Positions 6,778 to 19,260 of a stretch of DNA of 24,464 nucleotides are shown here, piece by piece; position 1 is the first letter of the stretch; every line of letters begins with the position of its first letter. The stretch is from Deltaproteobacteria bacterium. GTDB taxonomy: Bacteria; Myxococcota; UBA727; VGSZ01. The translations under genes were made by a program, and so were the position numbers. The stretch spans positions 1-24,464 of the forward strand of contig JAYTVG010000281.1 of assembly GCA_043744135.1 (NCBI GenBank). The letters are read 5' to 3'. The notes beneath the pieces are model-generated. The model did not search any database, was not told where the DNA came from, and was given only the letters and a program-made list of their open reading frames with translations.

Positions 6778-7332
6778 CTAGCGGACGTTTGAAATTGAGC
6801 TCTTGGCGGTATCGTGCTTGGTCTTCATAACGTTTGACACGGTGGTGAATGAGCGGTTTTCCATCTGCATCTTTTCCTGCAGCTGCAAGTATTGCAGGTT
6901 GAAGCTCGCCATCATCTCCTGCATGTCCTTGGTCTGATTCAGCATGTCTTGCTGGCTACTGCCCGAAGACTTGGTGCCCGTGTTGCTCGATAGACCGGGG
7001 CCACCCAGCGGAATCCCGTCAGCACCAGACGCGCCTGACGCGCCGCCTGCACCACCACCGCCGCCAACTCCGTAGCCGCCGCTGCTGCCGCCGCCGCCGC
7101 CGCCCAATGAACCTGCAGCGCCGGTGACCGCCGCCGACACCACTGCTGCGCCGGGAACAAACGGCGCCGCGACGCCAATGGCGGCGCCCGCGGTGCCCGC
7201 ACCAGCGGACACGCCGTTTCGGACCTGCGCGCCGAAATCGGTGCGCGGGGATTGGCGCACCGTGGTGCTACCGCTGTCGAGCTGGATCCCACCGCGGGTC
7301 GATCCGTTTCCATCAATGTTTGTGACTGCCAT
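6778..7332 (-). CDS. Putative T3SS needle-subunit (SctF/PrgI)-like protein, 184 aa, with hydrophobic hairpin and Gly-rich N-terminal extension
   Basis: GGAG RBS before ATG 7332. The last 34 aa (LQEKMQMENRSFTTVSNVMKTKHDTAKSSISNVR) align without gaps to the recalled PrgI C-terminal helix (YQSKLSEYNLYRNAQSNTVKVFKDIDAAIIQNFR), with 10 identities including the terminal I-x-N-x-R. Confidence 0.68.
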   Translation of the reverse strand: MAVTNIDGNGSTRGGIQLDSGSTTVRQSPRTDFGAQVRNGVSAGAGTAGAAIGVAAPFVPGAAVVSAAVTGAAGSLGGGGGGSSGGYGVGGGGGAGGASGASGADGIPLGGPGLSSNTGTKSSGSSQQDMLNQTKDMQEMMASFNLQYLQLQEKMQMENRSFTTVSNVMKTKHDTAKSSISNVR

Positions 7333-7444: not shown

Positions 7445-7473
7445 TTATCGCTGGACGGTAGCGGGCGTTGCGC
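7445..7473 (-). promoter_or_regulatory. Bipartite promoter-like motif GCGCAACGC-N13-GCGATAA upstream of the SctF-like gene
   Basis: Plus strand reads TTATCGC (7445-7451), a 13-nt spacer, then GCGTTGCGC (7465-7473). Identical boxes and spacing occur at 18672-18700. Confidence 0.7.
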
Positions 7474-7498
7474 TTGCGGCGTGCGGGATCGCGTCAGA

Positions 7499-7837
7499 TC
7501 AGCCGGTTGACCCAGCGCCCATGCCGGCTTTGGTCGCCAAAAGGTGCGACACCAGCGCCTGCGTCTTGTCGTAGGCTTTGAGCGCGCGTTGTGCAGCCGC
7601 TTTGTCTTTCGGGGATTTGGCGGATTTGGCCAACTGCGCGAGCTGGCTCGAGCGGGCCTTAAGTCCCGCTAACGCCGCTTCGCCGTTTTGCTCGACGACG
7701 GCTTCGATGGCCGGAAACCCTGCCGAGGCCGCAGGTGCAGCAGGGGCGGCCACTTTCGGCCGGCCATCGACGGTCTTTTTGACCGCGTCTTGGATCTTAA
7801 ACGCCTTCATGGCGTCGTTGCGTTTGCCGTCAGGCAT
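7499..7837 (-). CDS. Small basic helical protein, possible YscE/PscE-like needle chaperone
   Basis: GGAG RBS before ATG 7837; overlaps the upstream stop by 8 nt. C-terminal QRALKAYDKTQALVSHL resembles the recalled YscE segment QRESKALESAIAIIHYV. Lies directly upstream of the SctF-like gene. Confidence 0.5.
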   Translation of the reverse strand: MPDGKRNDAMKAFKIQDAVKKTVDGRPKVAAPAAPAASAGFPAIEAVVEQNGEAALAGLKARSSQLAQLAKSAKSPKDKAAAQRALKAYDKTQALVSHLLATKAGMGAGSTG

Positions 7838-8834
7838 GACTGCTCCAAAACCGTGAGAAGCCACCGTACGACAGACCCATGCCAGCGGCCAGCGTCACAT
7901 ACAAGCCAAAGCGGATCTGCAGCTGGCTTTCGACGGTGCGCTGAAGCCCGTACACCACGAGGAGGTAGGCACACAGCACAGTCGAAGCAGCACCGATCAG
8001 CAAGTGCCACAGCGAGGTGCGCCGCGACGCTTGTAGCTGTTCGCGCTGCGACGAGCGCCCCACGCTGCTATCGAGCACGCGGCGCGCCCGCCCCACCAGC
8101 AGCGCCACCGCGGCGCACGCCAGCGCAGCATGCAGCACGCCCCCCGAAACCAGCCCGATTTGAAACGGGTGGGCGCGGTCCGAGATCCACGGCAGCAGCG
8201 TGCCCACCAAGGTGAGCAGCGCCGACAGGAACGTGACCTTGTCCGACGGTTGCCACACCCGCCAGCCCTGGCGCAGATCGCGCAGCAGCTCTTCGACTTC
8301 GCCCGCGACTGCGTCGAGCAGGCTGGGGGCTGCAGGGCTTGGTGCGTGCGGCACCGTGTGGTCGGGTGCTGGGCGGCGCGCGCGACGGCGTTCATCGCCC
8401 GAGGGGTCGTCGCCGATCGGGCGCGGGCGGGCGCGGCGCTCGCGATCGCCCGACGGGTCATCGCCGAGCGGTCGGTTGCGCAAGCGCCGTTCCCCCGACG
8501 GGTCGTCGCCGATGGGGCGGCGCTTGCGATCATCCCCCGAGGGGTCGTCGCCGATGGGGCGGCGCTTGCGGTCGTCGCCGGGCTCGTCAGGACGACGTCG
8601 TGCTTCGCGCTGCGCCGACAGCTCACGCGACATCGCTTCGGATTTTTGTTGGAGCTCACTTTGATGTCGTTGCGCTTGGGCATCGCGCGTCACACCGCTC
8701 GTGCCACGCTCGGGTGGACGCTCGGGCGAACGCTCGGGTGGACGCTCGGGTGGACGCTCGGATGGACGCTCCGGTGGACGCTCCGGTGGACGCTGTGAAG
8801 CGCGGTCCGGGCCTTTTTGCTGCGGCGGAGGCAT
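7830..8834 (-). CDS. Membrane protein with repeat-rich charged N-terminus and about 4 C-terminal TM helices
   Basis: MPPPQQK start. PPER-type repeats and RRPIGDDPSG-type repeats, then TM segments (VTFLSALLTLVGTLLPW; GLVSGGVLHAALACAAVALLVG; LWHLLIGAASTVLCAYLLVVYG; RFGLYVTLAAGMGLSYGG). Confidence 0.75.
   Translation of the reverse strand: MPPPQQKGPDRASQRPPERPPERPSERPPERPPERSPERPPERGTSGVTRDAQAQRHQSELQQKSEAMSRELSAQREARRRPDEPGDDRKRRPIGDDPSGDDRKRRPIGDDPSGERRLRNRPLGDDPSGDRERRARPRPIGDDPSGDERRRARRPAPDHTVPHAPSPAAPSLLDAVAGEVEELLRDLRQGWRVWQPSDKVTFLSALLTLVGTLLPWISDRAHPFQIGLVSGGVLHAALACAAVALLVGRARRVLDSSVGRSSQREQLQASRRTSLWHLLIGAASTVLCAYLLVVYGLQRTVESQLQIRFGLYVTLAAGMGLSYGGFSRFWSSHA
8395..8575 (-). repeat. 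Four copies of the coding repeat unit RP(I/L)GDDPSG(D/E)
   Basis: Plus strand repeats of GG(G)TC(G/A)TCGCCGA with (C/T)GGG(G/C)CG flanks; protein reads RPIGDDPSGD, RPIGDDPSGE, RPLGDDPSGD, RPIGDDPSGD. Confidence 0.85.
8706..8794 (-). repeat. 12-bp tandem coding repeat (PPER/PSER/SPER, about 7 units)
   Basis: Units of GCTC(G/C)GGTGGAC and variants on the plus strand. Confidence 0.85.
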
Positions 8835-8995
8835 GCGGCTATCGTTTCGCCCTCCAATCCGCCCGTCAAGGGATCGCGAGCTGTGCTCGCGCGCGCCATC
8901 GAGCCACCAGCACGGTCCGCTCGCGACCCGCGTGTGTCGTTGTGACGCGGGTTTCGTGGCTCGACGACACCTTTGCACGCGGCACGCAGCGTTCT

Positions 8996-10936
8996 ATGCG
9001 ACGCGCTGTGACCGCTACTGCCACCCCATCTGTCGCTAGCTACCAGGTGTTGGCGCGCAAGTACCGGCCTCAGACGTTTGAGGACGTCGCTGGACAAAGC
9101 AACGTGGTGTTGACGCTCAAGCGCGCGCTTGAAACTGGCCGCGTGGCACATGCGTTTTTGTTCACTGGCAGCCGTGGGGTGGGCAAGACCACGCTCGCGC
9201 GCATCTTGGCCCGCTGCTTGGTGTGCGCGACCGGCCCGACAGCGACGCCGTGCGGGGTGTGCAATCTGTGCATGGGTGTGCAGTCGGGGGCGCTGACCGA
9301 CGTCGTGGAGATCGACGGCGCCTCGAACAACTCGGTGGATCAGATCCGCGACTTGCAGGAGATGGCGCGGTTTTTACCGCAGTTGGCGCGCGTCAAAATT
9401 TTCATCGTGGACGAGGTCCACATGCTGTCCACGAGCGCGTTTAACGCCTTGCTGAAGATCTTAGAGGAGCCGCCACCGCATGTGAAGTTCATCTTCGCGA
9501 CCACAGAACCGCACAAGATCCCCGTCACCATCTTGTCGCGCTGTCAGCGCTACGACTTTAAGCGCCTGCCGCAAAAGACCATTGTGGCGCGCCTCAAACA
9601 CGTGCTCGCTCAGGAGCACACCAGCGTGTCGGACGCCGGCATCGAGGTCATCGCGCACGCCGCTGAGGGTGGCATGCGCGATGCCCTGAGCTTAACCGAC
9701 CAGGTGTTGAGCTTCGCGGGGGCAAACGCATCCGCACAGCAGGTGGCTGAAGCGCTCGGCATCATCGATCGGCGCAGCGTGGTGGCGGCGGTCGAAGCTG
9801 TGCTCGCTGGCGATGCCAAAGCAGCACTCGACATTGTGCACGCCGCGCACGCGAGCGGACATGATTTGCGGCAGCTGCTCAGCGGCGTCGCGCAAGAGTT
9901 GCGGCATTTGTGCGTCGCCAACGCCACCGGCACCATTTTGGGGCTGGCGGATCTGACGCCTGAAGACAGCGCCCACATCGACGCGCGCGCGCGCACCCTC
10001 GACAGCAAAGATTTGCTGCGTGTGCTGGCGATGACGCTCGATGGCATGGATCCACTCGCGCGCGCAGAAGATCCGCGGTTACACCTTGAGTTGGTATTGC
10101 TGCGCATCTGTCGTCGCGCACCGCTTAGTGAAGCCCTCGCGATCAGCGAAGCTATCGTGCGGTTGGAGGCGCTGAAGGCCGGCAAGCCCGTGCCACCGCT
10201 CGCACAGCTGCGACCGCTCGACATCGTGCGCGCCGCCTTGGCGCCCGCCCCAACAGCGCCCACCCCAACAGCGCCCGCCCCCACAGCGCCCACCCCAAGG
10301 GCGCCCGCGCCAACAGCGCCCACCCCAACAGCGCCCGCCCCCACAGCGCCCGCCCCCACAGCGCCCGCCCCCGTCGTGGCGGCGGTCGGCGAAGATCCGC
10401 CCTGGGTTGTCGACGAGGTGCCGGCGGGCCGTGCCTCGGTTGTGCGTGCGCAACCGCCAAAGCCCTTTGAATCAAACCACGACGCTGACGAGGTGGACGA
10501 AGGCATCGATCCTGCTGCGGGCCTGCCGTTACTCGGGGTGGACGCGCGCTTTATCGCCTTTGTCGACGCCACCGCGAAAAGCAACCGCCCACTTGCAATG
10601 CACCTCGACCAGGCCCGCGTGGTGTCGACGAACGACAGCGCGGTGCGCGTGGGCTTTGTCCGCGACCTGCACGAGCGAGCGCTGGCGCCGGCGTTGCTCG
10701 ATGCGGTGTTGTTGGCGGACCTGCGCGCGGCCTACGGCGCGGCTGTGACGCTGGAAATCGTCAAGCTCATCGACGGGACTGCCGCCGCCCCGTCGATGGC
10801 AGAGGCGCGCACCGCAGCCCTGGCGGCGGCGCAAGCGGCGCTCGAAGCGCACGCCAAATCGCATCCCGTGGTCGCCAAAGCGGTGGCGTTATTTGGTGGC
10901 CCAGTGCGTTCGGTGGTGCGCAAGGGCATCGCTTGA
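8996..10936 (+). CDS. dnaX: DNA polymerase III subunit gamma/tau
   Basis: YQVLARKYRPQTF, Walker A GSRGVGKTT, Zn site C..C...PCGVCNLC, DEVHMLS, SRCQRY, EGGMRDALSL. Start at 8996 or GTG 9008. Confidence 0.97.
   Translation: MRRAVTATATPSVASYQVLARKYRPQTFEDVAGQSNVVLTLKRALETGRVAHAFLFTGSRGVGKTTLARILARCLVCATGPTATPCGVCNLCMGVQSGALTDVVEIDGASNNSVDQIRDLQEMARFLPQLARVKIFIVDEVHMLSTSAFNALLKILEEPPPHVKFIFATTEPHKIPVTILSRCQRYDFKRLPQKTIVARLKHVLAQEHTSVSDAGIEVIAHAAEGGMRDALSLTDQVLSFAGANASAQQVAEALGIIDRRSVVAAVEAVLAGDAKAALDIVHAAHASGHDLRQLLSGVAQELRHLCVANATGTILGLADLTPEDSAHIDARARTLDSKDLLRVLAMTLDGMDPLARAEDPRLHLELVLLRICRRAPLSEALAISEAIVRLEALKAGKPVPPLAQLRPLDIVRAALAPAPTAPTPTAPAPTAPTPRAPAPTAPTPTAPAPTAPAPTAPAPVVAAVGEDPPWVVDEVPAGRASVVRAQPPKPFESNHDADEVDEGIDPAAGLPLLGVDARFIAFVDATAKSNRPLAMHLDQARVVSTNDSAVRVGFVRDLHERALAPALLDAVLLADLRAAYGAAVTLEIVKLIDGTAAAPSMAEARTAALAAAQAALEAHAKSHPVVAKAVALFGGPVRSVVRKGIA
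10241..10373 (+). repeat. 15-bp tandem repeat encoding a (P-T-A-P-T/A)n linker in DnaX
   Basis: About 9 units of CC(C/A)ACAGCGCCC(G/A)CC giving APAPTAPTPTAPAPTAPTPRAPAPTAPTPTAPAPTAPAPTAPAP. Confidence 0.9.
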
Positions 10937-11697
10937 CAGACGTCGCACACGACCGGCACGTCCACGCGCTGTCGTCGACGGTGGTGGTGTTGGTGCGTAC
11001 GGAGGGGCCGTTAAACGTCGGCAGTGTGGCGCGGCTGTGTGGCAATTTCGGTTGTGGTCTGCGCTTGGTCGACGTCAGCGCTGACACCACGAGCAAACAC
11101 GCGGTGATGATGGCGCACCCGGCCGAACAGGTGCTGCTGCAAGCGCAGCGGTTCGCTACGCTTGATGAGGCGCTGCGCGATGTGGACGCGTCGATCGGCA
11201 CGTCGTCAAAGATCGTGGATGCGCGCGATGGGCCGGTGTTTGACGTCGCGCGCGCGCGCGGGTTTTTGCCGGCGGCAGGCTGCACGGTGGCGGTGGTGTT
11301 TGGCAATGAGCGCACGGGCCTGAGTGTGGGCGAGGCTGCGTGCTGCACGCGCTTGGTGAAGCTACCGACACCGGGCACAAACGACAGCTTGAACCTCAGT
11401 CACGCGGTGGCGTGTGTGTTGACGCTGTTGGCGCAAGCGCAACGCGACAGCGCCACCGACGTTACCAGCGCGCCGCGAGCTGCTGCTGACGCGCGCGCCG
11501 TGTTGGTGACGCAGTGGCTGGCTGCGCTCGAGCTGCGCGGTTATTTTAAAGCACAACGGCCTGAGCGGTTTTTGCCGAGGCTGCGCGAGATCGTGGACAA
11601 GATGGACATCAGCGACCGCGACGTGGTGTTGCTGCGTGACATGCTGCATGTGTTGGCGCACGGCGCCGCACCCAAACAAGAGCGCGCGCATGGCTGA
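10933..11697 (+). CDS. trmJ: SPOUT RNA methyltransferase, TrmJ/LasT family
   Basis: VVLVRTEGPLNVGSVARLCGNFG, AVVFGNERTGLS, PTPGTNDSLNLSHAV; TTG start overlaps the dnaX stop. Confidence 0.85.
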   Translation: MTDVAHDRHVHALSSTVVVLVRTEGPLNVGSVARLCGNFGCGLRLVDVSADTTSKHAVMMAHPAEQVLLQAQRFATLDEALRDVDASIGTSSKIVDARDGPVFDVARARGFLPAAGCTVAVVFGNERTGLSVGEAACCTRLVKLPTPGTNDSLNLSHAVACVLTLLAQAQRDSATDVTSAPRAAADARAVLVTQWLAALELRGYFKAQRPERFLPRLREIVDKMDISDRDVVLLRDMLHVLAHGAAPKQERAHG

Positions 11698-13222
11698 CGC
11701 AGCAGCAGCGACGCCCGCGCAACATGACATCGTGTTGTGCACGATGAACGCCAAGTGGGAGCATGCCAGCTTTGGCTTGCGGTGTTTGATGGCGAATTTG
11801 GCGGAGTTGTCGTCGTGCGCGGTGATGATCGAGCGCACCATCCACGACCGCGCCAGCGACATCGCGGAGGAGATCTTAAGCTACCGGCCGAAGATCGTCG
11901 GCATTGGCGTGTACGTGTGGAACGCGGTGTTGGCGCTCGAAGTCGTCACGATCCTCAAACGCGTGCTTCCCGACCTGCACGTGGTGATTGGCGGGCCTGA
12001 GGTCAGCCATGAAGTCGACGCGCAAGACATCGTGACGCGTGCGGACTACGTCGTCACCGGTGAAGCCGATGTGGCCTTCATGCAATTGTGCACCAAGTTG
12101 CTGGCGGGTAAAAAGCCGCTGCTTAAGCGCATTGACGCCGGCAAACCCGAGCTGCACGCGCTGCAATTTCCCTACGCGCTGTACACCCACGACGACCTGC
12201 ACAAGCGCATCTTGTATGTGGAGGCGTCGCGCGGCTGTCCGTTTACCTGCGAGTTTTGCCTCAGCGCCCTGGACGACGGCGTGCGCACGTTCGCGCTTGA
12301 GGCGTTTTTGGCGCAGATGCAAACACTGCTTGAGCGTTTTGTCGGTGGGCGCTTGATGCTGAAGTTTGTCGATCGCACTTTCAACATGAAGATCGACGAC
12401 AGCGCTAAGATCTTGGAGTTTTTTTTGGCGCGCATGCGGCCCGGGCTGCATTTGCATTTCGAGATGATCCCCGACCGCCTGCCCGAACGCCTGCGCAGCT
12501 TGCTCGGGAAATTTCCTGCCGGCACGGTGCAGTTGGAGGTCGGCATCCAAACCCTCGATGTCGACGTCAGTAAACGCATCGCACGCAAACAAGACGTCGC
12601 ACGCATCGCCGACAACTTGGCGTTTTTGAAGCAGCACACCGGCGTGCACGTGCATGCCGACCTCATCGTCGGGCTGCCCGGTGAGTCGCTCGCGATGTTT
12701 GGCGCCGGCTACGACCAGCTGTACCGATGGCAACCTGAAGAGATCCAAGTCGGCATCTTGAAGCGGCTGCGCGGCACGCCGCTGCGACGTCACGACGGCA
12801 TTATGCGCTACACCGACACGCCGCCGTACGAGGTGTTGTGCACCGATGCGCTCGATTTTGTCGACGTGCAACGCCTCAAACGTTTCGCGCGCTACCACGA
12901 CGTGGTCGCCAACAGTGGACGTTTCAAGGCCGTCAGCGCGCTGTTGTTTGGCGACGCACCGTTTGCGCACTTCTTGGCGTTTTCCGATTGGCTGTGGCGC
13001 ACCACGCGCGCGACCTCTGGCATCGCGCTGTCGCGGTTGGCGCGCTTGCTCACTGAATTTTTGGTGAGCGAGCGCGGTGTGGCGGCCGAGGTGGTCGCGC
13101 ACGCCATGGAGCTCGACATCGGCCGCGACCGCATGGCGTCGCTGGTGGCCGACGACGCTGCGGGTGCTGTGAGCACCGCCCCGCGGCTGCCCAAGCGCCA
13201 AGCGCGTCACGTGATGCCTTAG
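11690..13222 (+). CDS. B12-binding-domain radical SAM protein (DUF4080-like)
   Basis: N-terminal cobalamin-binding domain (PKIVGIGVYVWN, VVIGGPEVS), YVEASRGCPFTCEFCLS (CxxxCxxC), DLIVGLPGE, LKRLRGT. Confidence 0.92.
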   Translation: MADAAAATPAQHDIVLCTMNAKWEHASFGLRCLMANLAELSSCAVMIERTIHDRASDIAEEILSYRPKIVGIGVYVWNAVLALEVVTILKRVLPDLHVVIGGPEVSHEVDAQDIVTRADYVVTGEADVAFMQLCTKLLAGKKPLLKRIDAGKPELHALQFPYALYTHDDLHKRILYVEASRGCPFTCEFCLSALDDGVRTFALEAFLAQMQTLLERFVGGRLMLKFVDRTFNMKIDDSAKILEFFLARMRPGLHLHFEMIPDRLPERLRSLLGKFPAGTVQLEVGIQTLDVDVSKRIARKQDVARIADNLAFLKQHTGVHVHADLIVGLPGESLAMFGAGYDQLYRWQPEEIQVGILKRLRGTPLRRHDGIMRYTDTPPYEVLCTDALDFVDVQRLKRFARYHDVVANSGRFKAVSALLFGDAPFAHFLAFSDWLWRTTRATSGIALSRLARLLTEFLVSERGVAAEVVAHAMELDIGRDRMASLVADDAAGAVSTAPRLPKRQARHVMP

Positions 13223-13343
13223 GCAGCGCTAGCGAGCGTTCGAAATTTAATCGCGCGGCGCGGCTACTTCTTCGCCCGGCCGTTTGCGCGCACCGTGCAC
13301 AAAAGCCGAGACGGCGCCGCACCGTTGAAGCATCATCGCGTGC

Positions 13344-13955
13344 ATGAAGGTGGCGTCAGTCGTCGTGGGCTTTGCAGCGCTGTCGGTCGCGTTGACGGCG
13401 CTTGGCTATGCCGCCGCGCGCGTCGGGCCACCACCACCCGCAAACGTGCTGGCGGCGGCGGCGCGACCCGCGGCCCTAACCGCACCACCTCCACCGCAAG
13501 CACCGACGTCGGACGCAGACCGTGACGCAGACCGGCGCGCACCGCTGCTGCCCGCGCTGTTTGTGGTCCAAAACGCCACTGCAAAAACGCAAATCGTGCT
13601 GGCGGGCCCACGGGCAAAGCCGCTGTTGTTGCACCTGTGGGCGTCGTGGTGCGGGCCGTGCCGTGCGGAATTGCCGGCGCTATTGGCATTTCACGGTCCC
13701 GCCGAGGTGCTGGCGGTGACGGTGGACGACCGTTTTGACGACGTCATGGCATTTTTTGGCGGCAACATCCCCGCGCAAGTGGCGTGGGACAGCACCATCT
13801 CGTTGGAGCGTGCGCTTGGGGTGCACAGCATCCCGACGACGTTTTTGATCGACACTGCAGGGCGCGTGATCGATCGCTACGATGGCGCTCAAGCGTGGCA
13901 GCAGCCGGCGATGGTGGAGGCGGTGCGGGAGGCGCTCGCGCCGCACATCCGTTGA
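13344..13955 (+). CDS. TlpA-family thiol:disulfide reductase, membrane-anchored
   Basis: LHLWASWCGPCRAELP and GVHSIPTTFLID; N-terminal hydrophobic anchor. Confidence 0.92.
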   Translation: MKVASVVVGFAALSVALTALGYAAARVGPPPPANVLAAAARPAALTAPPPPQAPTSDADRDADRRAPLLPALFVVQNATAKTQIVLAGPRAKPLLLHLWASWCGPCRAELPALLAFHGPAEVLAVTVDDRFDDVMAFFGGNIPAQVAWDSTISLERALGVHSIPTTFLIDTAGRVIDRYDGAQAWQQPAMVEAVREALAPHIR

Positions 13956-13985
13956 CGCTGGGCACGCAATGCCTCACGTGGTCGC

Positions 13986-14402
13986 ATGCCATTGTTTGAA
14001 TACCGCTGCGGCGCCTGCCGCCACTTGGAAGAGCTCCTGCAAAAGCACGGTGACGTCGCCCCAGAGCGCTGCCCGGCTTGCAAAAAGAAGGGGACGATGA
14101 CCAAGGAGATCAGCCTGACGTCGTTTCAGCTCAAAGGCGGCGGCTGGTACAAAGACCTGTATGCATCAACGCCCGCTGGCGGTGCAGACAGCGGCACGGA
14201 TGGCGCCAGCGACGGCAAAAGCGACAGCAAAAGCGACAGCAAAAGCGACGGCAAAAGCGACGGCAAAAGCGACAGCCCGACGACGAAAGCGGACGCGAAG
14301 CCTGCGGCCGACGCTGCGAGCAAGAGCACCGGCTCGGACAAAAAAGCCAACGCGAGCAAGCCCACCGCCAAAAAGGCCAAAGCCCGCAAACGCGCGAGCT
14401 GA
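13986..14402 (+). CDS. FmdB-family zinc-ribbon protein with Ser/Asp/Lys-rich low-complexity tail
   Basis: MPLFEYRCGAC...CPAC...FQLKGGGWY; the tail has 12-bp repeats (SDGK/SDSK). Confidence 0.9.
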   Translation: MPLFEYRCGACRHLEELLQKHGDVAPERCPACKKKGTMTKEISLTSFQLKGGGWYKDLYASTPAGGADSGTDGASDGKSDSKSDSKSDGKSDGKSDSPTTKADAKPAADAASKSTGSDKKANASKPTAKKAKARKRAS

Positions 14403-14405
14403 GCG

Positions 14406-15086
14406 CTACGGACAGGCCCCGCTCGCGAACACCGCTTCGCAGTTGCGTTCGTCGTCGAGGGTGACGGTGACGGGGCCGGTGCCGGTGCCGCAGATCCGCC
14501 AACCACAAAACGTCGAGCCGGCAGCGGCTGTGGCCGTGAGGGTGTCGCTTTCGTCGGCGAAGTAGCCCGCTTGGCAGTCGCCGTTGCCGTCGGTGCTGCA
14601 GTCAATGCGCGGCGTGCCGTCGTTGCGCAGCGCGGCGCTGGTGACGTTGCCGATGCCGAGGTCGGCTCCGTTTGGGGCCGAAAACACCACCAACAACGTG
14701 TGCAGTTGGCGGAAGTTGGCAGTGCATACGATCTCGTCTCCCTCATCGTCGTTCGGCAGCGCCGCCACAATCGACGCGTCTTGGGTGTTGCGCTCGGGGT
14801 TGCCATTTTTGGTGCAGGCCCAGCCGCCAAACAGCGCATCGCGGGCGGCCTCGGCCACCAGCACCACGTTGCCACCGATGGCGAAGTCGCGCGCTGCGTC
14901 GGTGCAGTCGGTGCTGCAGTCGATGCCCTCGGGGTCAGAGACAACGCCGCCGAGGCCATCGCCACCTTTGACAACGGTGACGCGCAAGGCTTTGGTGTCC
15001 ACGTGCGGGCCATCTGACGGGTTCGACGGTGGTGCGCACGCGAGCGTGCACGCGGTCCCAAACAACATCGGCAACAGCTTTGACAT
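14406..15086 (-). CDS. Lipoprotein with two divergent InlB B-repeat-like, Cys-containing domains
   Basis: MSKLLPMLFGTACTLAC signal. Two units of type V..G.G.V.S...GIDC...C....V.L.A.A..(D/G)S.F.GW..C. Confidence 0.72.
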   Translation of the reverse strand: MSKLLPMLFGTACTLACAPPSNPSDGPHVDTKALRVTVVKGGDGLGGVVSDPEGIDCSTDCTDAARDFAIGGNVVLVAEAARDALFGGWACTKNGNPERNTQDASIVAALPNDDEGDEIVCTANFRQLHTLLVVFSAPNGADLGIGNVTSAALRNDGTPRIDCSTDGNGDCQAGYFADESDTLTATAAAGSTFCGWRICGTGTGPVTVTLDDERNCEAVFASGACP

Positions 15087-15177
15087 CGACGCAGTGTAGG
15101 TGATGTCGAAGCGCTGCAACATCCGCCCATGCACGGTTGTGTGCTGTTGGTGCTGCGGGTTTGCTAAGGTCGCGTCC

Positions 15178-17475
15178 ATGTCCACGTACTGCCGCTTCAC
15201 GTTGTCGCTCGCGTTTGTCTGCGTCCAAGCCGGCTGCACCAGCTGCGGGGCTGGGCCGCAACCGTTTGCAGCAGGTGAGGGCGAAGGCGAGGGTGAGGGT
15301 GCGGGCGAAGGTGAGGGTGAGGGTGAGGGCGAGGGCGAGGGTGAGGGTGAGGGCGAACGTGATGCGGGGCCGCCGCCGCTGGATGTGTTCGGCCTGGACG
15401 ACCGCCCGACCAACACCACCTGCACGGCACCGCCACCGCCGCCCGCGGGCACTGGCGAGGTGGCCTTGGTGCAGCGTTGGCCCGACCTGCAAGTGTCGCG
15501 GCCGGTGTTCATGCTGCAAGAGCCTGGCACCAACCAAATCTACGTCGTGGAGCAAGCGGGCCGGTTGGTGCGCTTTGACAAAGACGACACCGCGGTCACC
15601 GTGCCGCAAGAGATGTTGAACATCACCGGGCCTGTCACCTTTGGCGGTGGCGACGGCAGCGAGGACGGCCTGCTGGGGATGGCGTTTCACCCGCAGTGGC
15701 CTGACGTCGCTGACGTGTTCGTGTTTTACACCACCGCTGACGACAGCATCGATCGCGTGGCGCGTTTCCCGCTCGGTGGCGACGGCACCTTTGACGAGAC
15801 CGCGCAGGAGATCGTGCTCGACATCGACGACTTCGCCTCCAACCACAACGGCGGCATGATCCGCTTCGGCACCGACGGCTATTTGTACATCGGCACCGGC
15901 GACGGCGGTGCCGGTTTCGACCCGTTTGAAAACGGCCAAGACGGCTTGAGCCTACTCGGCAAAATGCTCCGCATTGACGTCGACAACCCGCAAAATGGTA
16001 ACGCCTACGGCATCCCGCTGGACAACCCGTTCGTCGGCAACGCTGCGTTTGCTCCCGAGGTGTGGGCGCGTGGTTTGCGCAATCCCTGGCGCTGGAGCTT
16101 TGATGCGTTCACGGGAGATCTATGGGTGGGCGACGTCGGGCAGGTGCGCTGGGAAGAAATCAACATCGTCGAGCGCGGCGGCAACTACGGCTGGGACGTG
16201 TTTGAGGGCACGGAGTGTTTAGATGACACCTCAGGGCCCTCGGGTCCGTGCGATTTGGGCGGCACCAAACCACCGGTGACGACGTATTTTCACGACAGCG
16301 GCCGCTGTGCTGTGGCGGGCGGTAACGTCTACCGCGGCAGCGCCTATCCCGAGTTTGAGGGTAAGTATTTTTTCGGCGACCACTGCTCAAGCGAAGTGTT
16401 CGCGCTGGAATTTGACGGCGAGGTGGGCACCGGGGTGGAGGTCGCCAACAACGGCAACAACGTTGATGCGTTTGGCGAAGACGCGGACGGCGAGCTGTAT
16501 GTCATCTCCACGCCGGGTGGCACCATCGAGCAGATCACGCGATCGACAGACCCCGCCATCGACAACTTTCCGCAGACGTTGTCGGCCACCGGGTGCATGG
16601 ACGCTGTCGACACCACCCAGCCCGGCCCCGGCCTCATCCCGTACACCGTCGCGCACGCGTTTTACTCCGACGGTGCCGACAAGGAGCGCTTCATGGCGCT
16701 GCCCGAGGGACAAAACGCGATCGTCGACGCGACGACGGGCGACATCGACTTTCCTGTCGGCACGGTGTTTGTGAAGACGTTTCGCGTGGCGGGGCAGTTG
16801 GTGGAGACGCGGTTGTTTATCCGCCATTCGCAAGATCAATGGGGCGGCTATTCTTATGAATGGAACGATGCTGGCACCGATGCGACGCTGCTGCCCGCCG
16901 CCAAAAACAAGACGCTCAATAGCGGCCAGACGTGGTCGTATCCCGCGCGCAACGCCTGCCTGACGTGTCACACCGCGGCCGCCGGTCGCAGCTTGGGGCT
17001 TGAGGTGCCGCAACTTAACGGCGGTTTCACGTATCCCTCGGGGGTGTTCGCCAACCAACTCGCCACGCTCGATCACATCGGCGTGCTGAGCTTGCCCGCA
17101 CCTGTCGACACGCTGCCGGTGTTTGCCGCCATTGATGCCGATGGCTTTTCGATTGAGGCGCGCGCGCGCGCGTACCTGCACGTGAACTGTTCGAGCTGCC
17201 ATCGACCCGGCGGCATCGGCCAAGGTCCGTCCGACCTGCGGTTTCAAACGGCGTTTGGCGACATGGCGATCTGCGACCGCACACCGTCGGAGGGCGACTT
17301 TGGCATCGCTGACGCGCGCGTGTTTGCGCCGCAAGATCCGTCACGCTCAATGTTGTCGGTGCGTATGCACCGCCTGGGCGCGGGACGCATGCCGCTGCTC
17401 GGCAGTAACGTCGTCGACGCGGCGGGCGCCGCCTTGGTCGACAGCTGGATCGTGCAAACGACGACGTGCCCGTAG
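15178..17475 (+). CDS. Exported PQQ-dependent sugar dehydrogenase (GSDH/YliI-like beta-propeller) fused to a C-terminal diheme c-type cytochrome domain
   Basis: Signal peptide with Cys, GE repeat. EDGLLGMAFHP, NHNGGMIRFGTDGYLYIGTGDGG, GKMLRIDVD, GLRNPWRWSFD, WEEIN, GGNYGW. Two CxxCH motifs (CLTCH, CSSCH) and RMPLLG. Confidence 0.88.
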   Translation: MSTYCRFTLSLAFVCVQAGCTSCGAGPQPFAAGEGEGEGEGAGEGEGEGEGEGEGEGEGERDAGPPPLDVFGLDDRPTNTTCTAPPPPPAGTGEVALVQRWPDLQVSRPVFMLQEPGTNQIYVVEQAGRLVRFDKDDTAVTVPQEMLNITGPVTFGGGDGSEDGLLGMAFHPQWPDVADVFVFYTTADDSIDRVARFPLGGDGTFDETAQEIVLDIDDFASNHNGGMIRFGTDGYLYIGTGDGGAGFDPFENGQDGLSLLGKMLRIDVDNPQNGNAYGIPLDNPFVGNAAFAPEVWARGLRNPWRWSFDAFTGDLWVGDVGQVRWEEINIVERGGNYGWDVFEGTECLDDTSGPSGPCDLGGTKPPVTTYFHDSGRCAVAGGNVYRGSAYPEFEGKYFFGDHCSSEVFALEFDGEVGTGVEVANNGNNVDAFGEDADGELYVISTPGGTIEQITRSTDPAIDNFPQTLSATGCMDAVDTTQPGPGLIPYTVAHAFYSDGADKERFMALPEGQNAIVDATTGDIDFPVGTVFVKTFRVAGQLVETRLFIRHSQDQWGGYSYEWNDAGTDATLLPAAKNKTLNSGQTWSYPARNACLTCHTAAAGRSLGLEVPQLNGGFTYPSGVFANQLATLDHIGVLSLPAPVDTLPVFAAIDADGFSIEARARAYLHVNCSSCHRPGGIGQGPSDLRFQTAFGDMAICDRTPSEGDFGIADARVFAPQDPSRSMLSVRMHRLGAGRMPLLGSNVVDAAGAALVDSWIVQTTTCP
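15274..15357 (+). repeat. (Gly-Glu)n coding microsatellite
   Basis: GG(T/C)GA(G/A) hexamer about 14 times with one GA unit: GEGEGEGEGAGEGEGEGEGEGEGEGEGE. Confidence 0.95.
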
Positions 17476-17508
17476 TCGACGTCGGGCGCTGGGGTAAGCA
17501 AATACGCG

Positions 17509-18531
17509 TTACGCGCTTTTAAACTGCACCGGCAGCAACACACCGCGCGCCTTGAGCTGTTGTTTGACCCACGCTTTGATCGTCGTCGCTGGGTAGGTAC
17601 GGTCCGGGCGGATACCAACCTCGACGCGCGGCCCTTTGACGCGCACGCTCATGACCGCGTCTTCGATGCAGCGGTCGCGTGTGCTCCTTGCTTGCGCGGT
17701 TTTAACCGCCGCTGCAAACGTCGCCACCACGTCTTTCATGGTCGGGGGCGGCACGAACGTGGCGGTGTCGATGACGATGTGACGGGGTTTGACGCCCAAC
17801 TCCGCGCATAGGCTGCGCACGGCGGCTACGATATCAGCGTCGCTGCGCTGGGCGGGCTGGCGCACGCTAACGCGCAGCGCGTCGCCGTCTACGCGCAAAC
17901 CAACAACCTCTTGGTGCGGGTTTGCTGTGCTGCCGGCGCGCGCCATCAGCTGCGCGGCATCAAACAAGCGCTGCGCGTCGGCGCTGCACAGTGGTGGCGG
18001 CGGATCGGCGCGCTTGAGGTGGACGCTGAGTGCAGCACCCCCAGCAGCAGCGATCAGCGGGGCACAGCGCGTGCGCACATCGACGTCGCTCAAGACAGCG
18101 TCCGCGTCGATCACGACCTGCACGGTTTTGGCATCGACAGCTTCGACGTGGCTGATGCCTTCAAGGCGTCGCGCGTCGCTGCGATCGGCGCTGAGCGCGG
18201 CATTGACCTCCGCGGCGACGGCGCGCGCCTCTCCCGTCGTCAATAGCTCCAGTCGAGCGCCTTCGGGCACGCCGCACGCTTGCAGCAGGGCGCGCGTAGC
18301 GTCGCGGATGGCGCCGCGCGAAAACAGCGCATGCGCGTCGATAGTGGCGAGCACAGCGCCGTCGTGCACGTGCAGGCCGCGGATGCAGCGTTGCACCGCA
18401 TCGGGGTCGTTTTTGAAGCTGGTGATGCGCAGCAGCGCCTGCGCGACCGCCGCACGCAAGGTGTGCGGATCGACGGTCACAGCCACTGCGACCGGCCATC
18501 TGCGCTGCGGACTAGGGTGGTTTGTGCCCAT
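17509..18531 (-). CDS. Hypothetical protein with four tandem about 75-85 aa alpha/beta modules
   Basis: Long ORF, probable start ATG 18531. Each module reads helix, strand, strand, helix, strand. Confidence 0.6.
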   Translation of the reverse strand: MGTNHPSPQRRWPVAVAVTVDPHTLRAAVAQALLRITSFKNDPDAVQRCIRGLHVHDGAVLATIDAHALFSRGAIRDATRALLQACGVPEGARLELLTTGEARAVAAEVNAALSADRSDARRLEGISHVEAVDAKTVQVVIDADAVLSDVDVRTRCAPLIAAAGGAALSVHLKRADPPPPLCSADAQRLFDAAQLMARAGSTANPHQEVVGLRVDGDALRVSVRQPAQRSDADIVAAVRSLCAELGVKPRHIVIDTATFVPPPTMKDVVATFAAAVKTAQARSTRDRCIEDAVMSVRVKGPRVEVGIRPDRTYPATTIKAWVKQQLKARGVLLPVQFKSA

Positions 18532-18671
18532 CGCGAGCGACACGCTAGCGCTGTTGAGACGTGTCGTGGCTAAAAACGGCGCGCGCTGGCACACCGGCAA
18601 GCGGATCGCGGGCACCGTAACGCTTGATGTTTACGTGGCTTTGCGGGCGGGTCGACGCCGTACGATCCCGC

Positions 18672-18700
18672 GCGCAACGCGCCGCGCCAGCCTGCGATAA
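18672..18700 (+). promoter_or_regulatory. Bipartite promoter-like motif GCGCAACGC-N13-GCGATAA upstream of the SctI-like gene
   Basis: GCGCAACGC 18672-18680, 13-nt spacer, GCGATAA 18694-18700; ends 35 nt before the ATG. Same as 7445-7473 on the minus strand. Confidence 0.7.
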
Positions 18701-18735
18701 CCTCGCAGTACAGTGTTTTTGCGCAGGAGCATCCC

Positions 18736-19260
18736 ATGGTAGATCCCGTCTCAGGTGGCATCGGCAAAGCCAGCCAACAAATGATGCAAGAGCTCCAAAA
18801 GGAGATGCAAAAAGGCCAAGACCAAGTCGGTAAGCCGGGCTTTAACGACACGATGGCGCAGCAAGTCAACCAGACCCAAGGCGTGCAGCACACGCAGGGG
18901 ATCCAGCCTGTACAAGAAGCGCAAAAGGTCAACGAGGCCACCAAAGCTGCCGACGTTCTGCGCACCGCACAAAGCCAAAGCGTGCAAGGCGTCAACCCGG
19001 ACACCGGCGTCAAGCCGATCGAAAAAAAGGCCGAGTCCAAAGAGGCGGGCCTCAAGGCCGTGCTCAACCAGGTGGTCGACGGACAAAACAAGCTCGACGA
19101 CATCATCAAGATGGCCACCAGCGGCAAGGTGTACGGCAACCAACAGCTGCTGGCGATTCAAGCCTCGGTCTACAAGTTCAGCCAAGAGCTCGATTTGACG
19201 TCGAAGGTGGTGGAAAAAGCCACCAGCGGCGTCAAGCAGACCATGCAGACCCAGGTTTAA
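18736..19260 (+). CDS. Putative T3SS inner-rod protein (SctI/YscI/HrpB2-like)
   Basis: AGGAG RBS. Gln-rich, likely disordered N-terminus. C-terminal QQLLAIQASVYKFSQELDLTSKVVEKATSGVKQTMQTQV matches the recalled SctI/HrpB2 C-terminal pattern (L..Q.......ELx.K...K....V..L). Confidence 0.75.
   Translation: MVDPVSGGIGKASQQMMQELQKEMQKGQDQVGKPGFNDTMAQQVNQTQGVQHTQGIQPVQEAQKVNEATKAADVLRTAQSQSVQGVNPDTGVKPIEKKAESKEAGLKAVLNQVVDGQNKLDDIIKMATSGKVYGNQQLLAIQASVYKFSQELDLTSKVVEKATSGVKQTMQTQV

Follow-up and report, generated by a model that had tools for sequence, protein, structure and literature searches.

Well-studied injectisomes are controlled by AraC-type activators or by sigma factors of the extracytoplasmic function (ECF) class. 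HrpL, acting at the hrp box, and BtrS are ECF sigma factors that control the non-flagellar type III secretion systems (T3SSs) of Pseudomonas syringae, Erwinia, and Bordetella. To our knowledge, the regulatory evolution of non-flagellar T3SSs is essentially unknown. These systems are held to derive from the flagellum, with those of Myxococcales placed near the root of the tree and sigma factors left undiscussed (Abby and Rocha 2012, PMC3459982). Flagellar sigma-28 (FliA) recognizes a consensus of TAAA at -35 and GCCGATAA at -10 (PMC8325347). In the Pseudomonas aeruginosa fliC promoter, the -10 element is (-15)GCCGATAA(-8) and the -35 element is (-36)TCTAAAG(-30), and base-specific -35 contacts come from S224 and Q228 in region 4.2 of the sigma factor (PMC12784957). 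WhiG is a sigma-28-clade factor co-opted for sporulation in Streptomyces and for type IV pili in Rubrobacter (PMC8325347), and the study of chlamydial sigma-28 cited here validated hctB and tsp only as its targets, not needle or rod genes (PMC12282069). This report compares these systems with a bipartite motif that occurs twice in contig JAYTVG010000281.1 of assembly GCA_043744135.1 (24,464 nucleotides; hereafter the window), once before a needle-like gene and once before a rod-like gene.

The window is contig C281 of genome G000, a 4.87-Mb assembly in 1119 contigs with 64% GC content and 86% completeness. The comparison set consists of 38 species genomes from an uncultured class of Myxococcota, with the relatives numbered from G001 onward. 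On the strength of sequence comparison, the two motifs are probably promoters of one alternative-sigma regulon, read by a FliA paralog linked to the T3SS. In the proposed mechanism, RNA polymerase carrying this divergent FliA/WhiG-type (group 3) sigma factor would bind GCAAC at about -34 to -30 through an altered region 4.2 and (G/C)CGATA(A/C) at about -14 to -8 through a FliA-like region 2.4/3.0. Transcription would begin about 7-8 nucleotides (nt) downstream, which places the predicted start sites near 18707-18708 on the plus strand and 7438-7437 on the minus strand. The regulon would take in two subunits of the non-flagellar T3SS, the needle-like and the rod-like one, together with several families of small proteins, and would not include sctV, sctU, or sctJ.

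Sequence and conservation of the bipartite motif

The plus-strand site consists of GCGCAACGC (18672-18680), 13 nt, and GCGATAA (18694-18700). The minus-strand site repeats it exactly: GCGCAACGC (7473-7465), 13 nt, and GCGATAA (7451-7445). A sequence-only reading of this DNA had reported 16 identical bases with the same spacing, each copy oriented to its gene, and re-reading both coordinates confirmed this. The functional core is GCAAC-N16-CGATA(A/C). In the predicted promoter of the rod-like gene (18672-18700, plus strand), GCAAC occupies 18674-18678, the 16-nt spacer 18679-18694, and CGATAA 18695-18700. In that of the needle-like gene (7445-7473, minus strand), the corresponding positions are 7471-7467, 7466-7451, and 7450-7445. 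The site lies 35 nt from the ATG on the plus strand and 112 nt on the minus strand, and the 5′ untranslated region of the needle-like gene would be about 105 nt long, counted from its predicted start site.

The full 16-base pattern has exactly two copies in the assembly, both in the window, where 0.011 are expected from the separate frequencies of its boxes (425 and 255 occurrences). That the identity arose by chance, or as a functionless relic of local duplication, is highly improbable. The GC-richness of the genome and the lack of conservation of the GC flanks in relatives lend this some color: constraint across relatives extends to only about 10-12 of the 16 identical bases (c-GCAAC, CGATA, A/C, T), and the other shared bases are probably coincidence at this GC content. 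Against it stand the copy number and the presence of the core at more than 35 orthologous sites with diverged spacers, a conservation that effectively refutes chance. The two genes and their flanks are also unrelated. The upstream regions align at the motif alone, with no alignment outside it, and the downstream proteins are not detectable paralogs (BLASTP E > 1; hhalign probability 0.4%); the match is therefore not a duplication relic. A repeat of the repetitive extragenic palindromic type, or any other genome-wide repeat, was likewise rejected, given that the full pattern is present only twice and its degenerate form about 16 times with the right spacer; enrichment of the degenerate core is confined to spacers of 16-17 nt.

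Counts of GCAAC-Nx-CGATA(A/C) in G000 gave 10 sites with a 16-nt spacer, 6 with a 17-nt spacer, and a mean of 2.2 at other spacers (Poisson 1e-4). Seven of the nine assessable N16 sites stand at most 120 nt before a ribosome-binding site and start codon, compared with 5 of 36 at control spacers (Fisher p = 5e-4). Five relatives pooled hold 46 sites versus 8 with a reversed-pattern control, and the regulon amounts to approximately 5-14 sites per genome.

The motif is kept upstream of orthologs of both genes across six families. The core precedes rod-like orthologs at all 15 loci from public metagenome-assembled genomes, 30-130 nt before the start codon, with one ACAAC and one 17-nt spacer as exceptions. 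It precedes needle-like orthologs in 22 of 25 genomes, which represent the six families. Spacers are wholly diverged and range from GC-rich to AT-rich; in low-GC relatives of 1.3-2 Mb they are T-rich and the boxes are intact. In a profile of 38 orthologous sites, for which CAAC and CGATA were imposed by the search pattern, the first -35-like base is G in 92%. CGATA is preceded by G or C and followed by A in 74% of these sites and then by T in 71%. TGTA/TTGA is weakly conserved at the predicted +1, 7-10 nt past CGATAA and at an offset of +33 to +36 from GCAAC (T, G, T, and A each in 53-66%); in the window, this element falls at about 18707-18710 on the plus strand and 7438-7435 on the minus strand. 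The orthologous sites as a whole lie 17-166 nt before start codons.

The sequence-only reading had also pointed to a 9-mer, CGATCCCGC, ahead of both sites, and this too is correct: it occupies 18663-18671 on the plus strand, 10 nt before GCAAC, and 7491-7483 on the minus strand, with a further GATC at 7500-7497. This GATCC sequence is one instance of a broader upstream GATC element. Of the 38 orthologous sites, 30 have a GATC in the 45 nt before GCAAC, mostly 14-27 nt away; control 4-mers occur in 0-4 sites, and about 18% is expected from genome frequency (binomial p = 6e-16). The consensus is GATC(C/T), with RGATCY matched by half of the sites. Because the distance of the element varies, direct contact by the sigma factor is disfavored; an activator site, an UP-like element, and a methylation site are all possible.

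The GATC element bears on a different account of the motif, in which the two boxes form a transcription factor site, for an activator or repressor, that co-regulates both genes while the real promoter lies elsewhere in the intergenic regions. A conserved GATC at variable distance hints at extra factors, and the approximately 105 nt between motif and needle-like start codon could hold another promoter. This account is quite unlikely all the same, given boxes that differ from one another and are non-palindromic, a fixed 16-nt spacer, a fixed orientation, and a position 17-166 nt from start codons. The register and -10 box match sigma-28 promoters, and the weak conservation of TGTA/TTGA falls at the predicted +1.

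A sigma-28-type geometry had been proposed from the two window sites, and the register equals that of the P. aeruginosa fliC promoter. When CGATAA is set at -13 to -8, GCAAC falls at -34 to -30, which is the register of TAAAG in that promoter, and the 16-nt spacer is enriched, the 17-nt spacer less so. The spacing of TAAA-N15-GCCGATAA is reproduced by GCAAC-N16-CGATAA. The -10 boxes of the window sites, TGCGATAA and AGCGATAA, agree with GCCGATAA at 6-7 of 8 consensus positions.

The T3SS-linked sigma factor

The FliA/WhiG-like sigma gene of G000 is located on contig C527 (C527:2351-3262, minus strand) and is the sole specific candidate of the FliA/WhiG model in the genome; other sigma matches are RpoD-, RpoS/RpoD-like, RpoH-, and ECF-type. 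Its product aligns to TIGR02479 (FliA_WhiG) over the full length, including region 3, at 157.7 bits, with SigB/F/G next at 85, and its best matches in the PDB are WhiG and FliA. The genome, in which the sequence-only reading had advised looking for a FliA/WhiG sigma factor, encodes one FliA/WhiG-like factor, divergent in sequence and syntenic with motif-bearing genes in many relatives. In public annotation it appears as "FliA for flagellar operon" or, generically, as a member of the sigma-70 family.

In G001, G002, G004, G005, G018, G024, G029, G030, and G031, the sigma gene shares its strand with the rod-like gene and precedes it by 170-260 nt; in G003 and G020, the two lie within 0.7-1.6 kb of each other. 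The needle-like gene belongs to the same cluster in G003, G018, G029, G030, and G031, and in several genomes the sigma gene sits between the needle-like and rod-like genes. The order in G003 is small gene, motif, needle-like gene, a small TPR protein with a weak HrpB1/HrpK match, a 127-amino-acid (aa) gene, sigma gene, a 177-aa open reading frame (ORF), motif, and rod-like gene. The cluster, which is compact in G003 and G018, is dispersed in G000 over at least three contigs: the small and needle-like genes occupy 7864-6778 of the window, the rod-like gene lies 11 kb off across housekeeping genes, and the TPR and 127-aa pair is found on C646:8270-9166. Both promoters were retained through this rearrangement. 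The 127-aa gene upstream of the sigma gene in G003 and G018 (C646 in G000) was considered as an anti-sigma candidate and returned no Pfam match and no informative match in the protein atlas.

The immediate surroundings of the sigma gene vary. In G003 (L114:5961-8352) and G018 (L115:6017-8938), it follows the needle-like, TPR, and 127-aa genes, all on one strand and separated by short gaps, and the GCAAC promoter precedes the series. To judge from this arrangement, the sigma gene may be co-transcribed from its own cognate promoter in these two genomes, giving positive feedback. The rod-like gene of G018 starts 40 nt after the sigma gene and has no separate strict motif. In G000, a sigma-70-like TTGACC-N18-TAATGT directly precedes the annotated sigma start (L014:3262-3320; C527, minus strand) and no GCAAC motif is present there; transcription of this copy may depend on the housekeeping sigma factor. 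The sigma ORF and the 177-aa ORF of G003 (L114:7606-8904) are in frame, one stop codon and 18 nt apart, and a tblastn alignment ran across the stop. This pair may reflect coincidence, read-through, or a history of fusion.

The two residues that contact the -35 element in P. aeruginosa sigma-28, S224 and Q228, align to S277 and R281 of the T3SS-linked sigma factor in the PDB alignment. They were mapped to the S and Q of SRVSQ, the sole tag offset that fits both residues. The helix GLSKSWTSRRHAQ is invariant in the examined T3SS-linked orthologs, bar one substitution in low-GC G018, and ESRVCQ(L/I)H is preserved in the canonical FliAs that relatives encode. Region 2.4/3.0 is FliA-like, with YRIRGAIYDGLRGMGW in the paralog versus VRIRGAILDELRAMDW in canonical FliA. 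A common -10 reader and a diverged -35 reader would fit a promoter with a sigma-28-type -10 box and a new -35 box.

Canonical FliA occurs in the flagellated relatives, where it scores 209-237 bits, past the model cut-off, and adjoins flhA in G030 and G031. The T3SS-linked sigma factor shares only about 28% identity with these proteins and is a paralog of flagellar FliA, not the same factor. Flagellin was found in 10 of 37 relatives, several of which carry a second FHIPEP protein that is a true FlhA. Flagellar loci in relatives include G030:C189, G031:C61, and G003:C47/C18 (L117, L119, and L120).

With many relatives encoding flagellin, FlhA, and a canonical FliA past the cut-off, and with -10 boxes near the sigma-28 consensus, canonical FliA might read or co-read these promoters in flagellated relatives. 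The T3SS genes would then belong to the flagellar late regulon and the paralog would have another role. This is very unlikely. G000, G029, and all of the reduced genomes (f4/f5) keep the motif and the paralog and have neither flagellin nor canonical FliA; G000 and G029 have no FlhA either. Upstream of the flagellin-family genes inspected in G003, G027, and G030, no GCAAC-N16-CGATA and no obvious TAAA-N15-GCCGATAA was recognized. At -35, the motif has GCAAC and not TAAA, in line with the changed -35 contact of the paralog.

Several observations weigh against the paralog as reader of the motif and against a single T3SS regulon. The assignment is indirect and rests on synteny, -10 similarity, and divergence of region 4.2. 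The sigma factor falls below the curated FliA/WhiG cut-off (157.7 < 189.6), and its gene in G000 is on a different contig from both targets. The TAAA of sigma-28 -35 elements is missing, and GCAAC has only the central AA in common with TAAAG. Enrichment of the motif is weak or absent in some sigma-bearing relatives (1 versus 2 in G004, 0 in G008, and 9 versus 6 in G027). The identities of the two small downstream proteins depend on sub-threshold similarity, and in public read data the locus was found in sediment DNA metagenomes only. Finally, several ECF-sized sigma-70-family proteins are present in all relatives tested, even in those of 1.3-2 Mb.

This last point bears on whether an ECF (group 4) sigma factor reads the promoter in place of the FliA-like paralog. 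Myxococcota are rich in ECF sigma factors, and ECF promoters typically combine an AAC-containing -35 with a CG-containing -10 about 16-17 nt apart, a general layout that GCAAC-N16-CGA resembles. The sigma count itself does not discriminate, as the reduced-genome relatives carry 6-8 sigma-70-family proteins each, some of them ECF-sized. An ECF reader is nonetheless unlikely: (G/C)CGATA(A/C) is a hallmark of sigma-28 and differs from the CGT-type -10 of ECF promoters, and the only conserved sigma gene that adjoins the targets aligns to FliA/WhiG over its full length, region 3 included. The clusters of G003, G018, and G029 hold no ECF sigma/anti-sigma pair, and the promoter departs from the ECF pattern. 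With these points weighed, the proposal of a novel FliA/WhiG-like promoter is supported by its geometry, -10 box, and conservation and by the FliA/WhiG-like, sub-cut-off sigma factor; its -35 box is GCAAC instead of TAAA.

Downstream genes, regulon, and secretion machine

The needle-like gene (6778-7332, minus strand) encodes 184 aa and starts at an ATG at 7332 after GGAG. Its product has a Gly-rich middle and the C-terminus SNVMKTKHDTAKSSISNVR, and the residues invariant in its family are S166, N167, K170, D174, N182, and R184 (C-terminal SN..K...D.......N.R). Against the PDB, the family profile (A3) ranks MxiH needle chains highest, with alignments that run to the last residue at a marginal E of 0.2-1, and the protein atlas places the product beside needle, HrpA, and HrpE clusters. 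SctF itself was defined as a helical hairpin of about 80 aa with a C-terminal polymerization helix of the SNxxKxxxDxxxxIxNxR type and a PF09392 match above threshold. The needle-like protein is about twice the canonical SctF length and has no Pfam match above threshold. Its AlphaFold2 model (P0002) has a mean predicted local distance difference test (pLDDT) score of about 50, at which the long C-terminal helix alone can be stated.

Directly upstream of the needle promoter is a small gene of 121 aa (7499-7864, minus strand), an ortholog of the gene that precedes the needle-like gene in G003. The 106-aa G003 protein matches the window by tblastn at 7819-7520 (43% identity, E 9e-10), and the 121-aa product has no Pfam family match.

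The rod-like gene (18736-19260, plus strand) encodes P0001, a protein of 174 aa resembling the SctI/HrpB2/needle families, and has GGAG 7 nt before its ATG. P0001 combines a Gln-rich N-terminus with a conserved C-terminal helical hairpin, which is the only feature that can be stated from an AlphaFold2 model with a mean pLDDT of about 50. Its matches to SctI models are weak (PF17001, E 0.026; NF038054, E 0.0096), at 15-16 bits where the cut-offs are 32-39, and 6 of 32 rod-like family members match PF17001 at E < 0.01. The family contains more than 530 homologs, most of which have a precomputed match to PF09392 (T3SS needle). The named atlas clusters nearest to P0001 are those of T3SS needle, HrpB2, and NolB (top score 0.96). 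The rod-like gene does not adjoin sctJ, as SctI genes are expected to, and sctJ sits on contig C202. The family profile found nothing significant among PDB sequences (best E 0.15, a phage tape-measure protein), and P0001 showed no match to the FlgM anti-sigma family up to E 5. The view that both downstream genes resemble the needle and rod families is upheld by profile matches and atlas neighbors. "Needle-like" and "rod-like" are reasonable labels on this footing, and neither protein passes a curated family threshold.

The other motif-bearing genes of G000 (C68:5986, C509:4059, C534:2420, C794:8668, C802:1949, C958:9484, and C1073:4670) encode small proteins without known domains, as do those at L077-L111. 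Clustering of downstream proteins revealed five more gene families with the motif, each in 2-3 genomes. Pfam domains are missing from nearly all of the motif-downstream families; LysM is present in one, and weak EF-hand-like matches occur in some. Among these proteins are a family of about 158 aa that begins MANEIQKP..RFPWVTPSG, another that begins MGLIGDIAGAFGISKTG, short proteins with the N-terminus MSF(L/I)G, and proteins that contain EF-hand-like DxNxDG stretches. These small proteins are candidate T3SS substrates and may be secreted. With one mismatch allowed, the loci of sctV, sctU, sctJ, and the sigma gene hold no motif above background. Since the motif is at background near sctV, sctU, and sctJ, the regulon consists of the needle-like, rod-like, and small-protein genes without the apparatus. 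The suggested T3SS filament regulon accordingly includes both filament-type genes and extends past them to the small-protein families.

G000 encodes one FHIPEP protein, one FlhB/SctU protein, and one short SctJ-type ring protein, on separate contigs. The SctV fragment scores 670 with hrcV versus 591 with FlhA (NCBIfam equivalog models), and full-length SctV orthologs in G003 and G029 score 819-825, over the cut-off of 692. SctU scores 257 versus 242 for FlhB, and SctJ is the best match for the ring protein at 128 bits. No flagellin and no flagellar rod (Flg_bb_rod) or hook domain was found in G000 at 86% completeness. Because Sct models outrank the flagellar ones and these flagellar components were not found, the system is identified by its gene content as a dispersed non-flagellar T3SS.

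Among the relatives G004-G024, the same order includes a family whose genomes are strongly reduced (0.3-3.4 Mb). Many of these genomes have SctV and the T3SS-linked sigma factor and no flagellin; they may belong to host-associated or predatory lineages. Genera g10 and g12 possess SctV and the sigma factor, and their needle- and rod-like homologs amount to one weak needle-like match (G011). The remaining genes of the window are housekeeping genes: dnaX and genes for a radical SAM protein, a glucose/sorbosone dehydrogenase, an OPT transporter, and a MatE transporter.

Comparison with known regulatory systems

The literature search returned no FliA-type sigma factor described as linked to a non-flagellar T3SS of Myxococcota. 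The motif is best described as a conserved alternative-sigma promoter with sigma-28 geometry and a novel -35 box, and its reader is most likely the T3SS-linked FliA paralog, as far as comparative evidence reaches. It would represent a natural case of insulation between paralogous sigma factors, in which the -10 reader is shared and the -35 reader has diverged. GCAAC-N16-CGATAA also serves as a sequence handle with which candidate T3SS substrates can be predicted in this uncultured lineage, where secreted proteins carry no recognizable domains. The current public annotation of the sigma factor, as a flagellar-operon FliA or a generic sigma-70 protein, would be corrected.

The suggestion that the motif may be a relic of the flagellar late-gene hierarchy is plausible. 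It can be extended, as a tentative possibility, to the view that deep-branching Myxococcota kept or re-invented flagellar late-sigma logic for a T3SS. A FliA paralog would have been re-tuned from TAAA to GCAAC by the Gln-to-Arg change and neighboring changes in region 4.2, insulated from the canonical FliA that co-exists in some relatives, and set to switch on the needle, rod, and substrate genes only once the basal apparatus has been made. The sigma factor may be held in check by a putative secreted FlgM-like partner in such a scheme. A FliA-type sigma factor placed between needle and rod genes and reading a promoter of sigma-28 geometry with an altered -35 box would be the first trace, in regulation, that the late-gene hierarchy of the flagellum has left in a system of the injectisome type. 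If late-sigma logic applies, the system would represent, in its gene regulation, a living intermediate between flagellum and injectisome.

Flagellar class 3 promoters of Escherichia coli, Salmonella, and P. aeruginosa fliC (PMC12784957, PMC8325347) resemble the present promoters in the -10 box, the -35 register, and the presence in the genome of a group 3, FliA/WhiG-like sigma factor. In both cases, the targets are axial or filament-type subunits that a type III machine exports. Unlike the flagellar promoters, those described here have GCAAC at -35, a sub-cut-off paralog with a Gln-to-Arg change at a contact residue, and non-flagellar T3SS targets, and no FlgM-like anti-sigma factor was identified.

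Chlamydial sigma-28 (PMC12282069, PMC3459982) is similar as a FliA-family factor without a flagellum, with dispersed T3SS genes and a small regulon. Against the chlamydial sigma-28 model, the T3SS-linked sigma factor of Myxococcota scores 82 bits and the canonical FliAs of its relatives 122-144; it is therefore not specifically chlamydia-like.

WhiG is a precedent for the re-assignment of a flagellar-clade sigma factor to another surface or developmental regulon. WhiG keeps TAAA/GCCGATAA specificity (PMC8325347), whereas the -35 specificity here appears changed. No RsiG-like partner was identified for the T3SS-linked sigma factor.

HrpL and BtrS provide a parallel within non-flagellar T3SSs: like the system described here, they pair a dedicated alternative sigma factor with a bipartite promoter before T3SS pilus or needle genes and secreted-protein genes. 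They are group 4 ECF factors with other boxes, whereas the linked sigma factor of this Myxococcota class belongs to group 3, is FliA-like, and has region 3.

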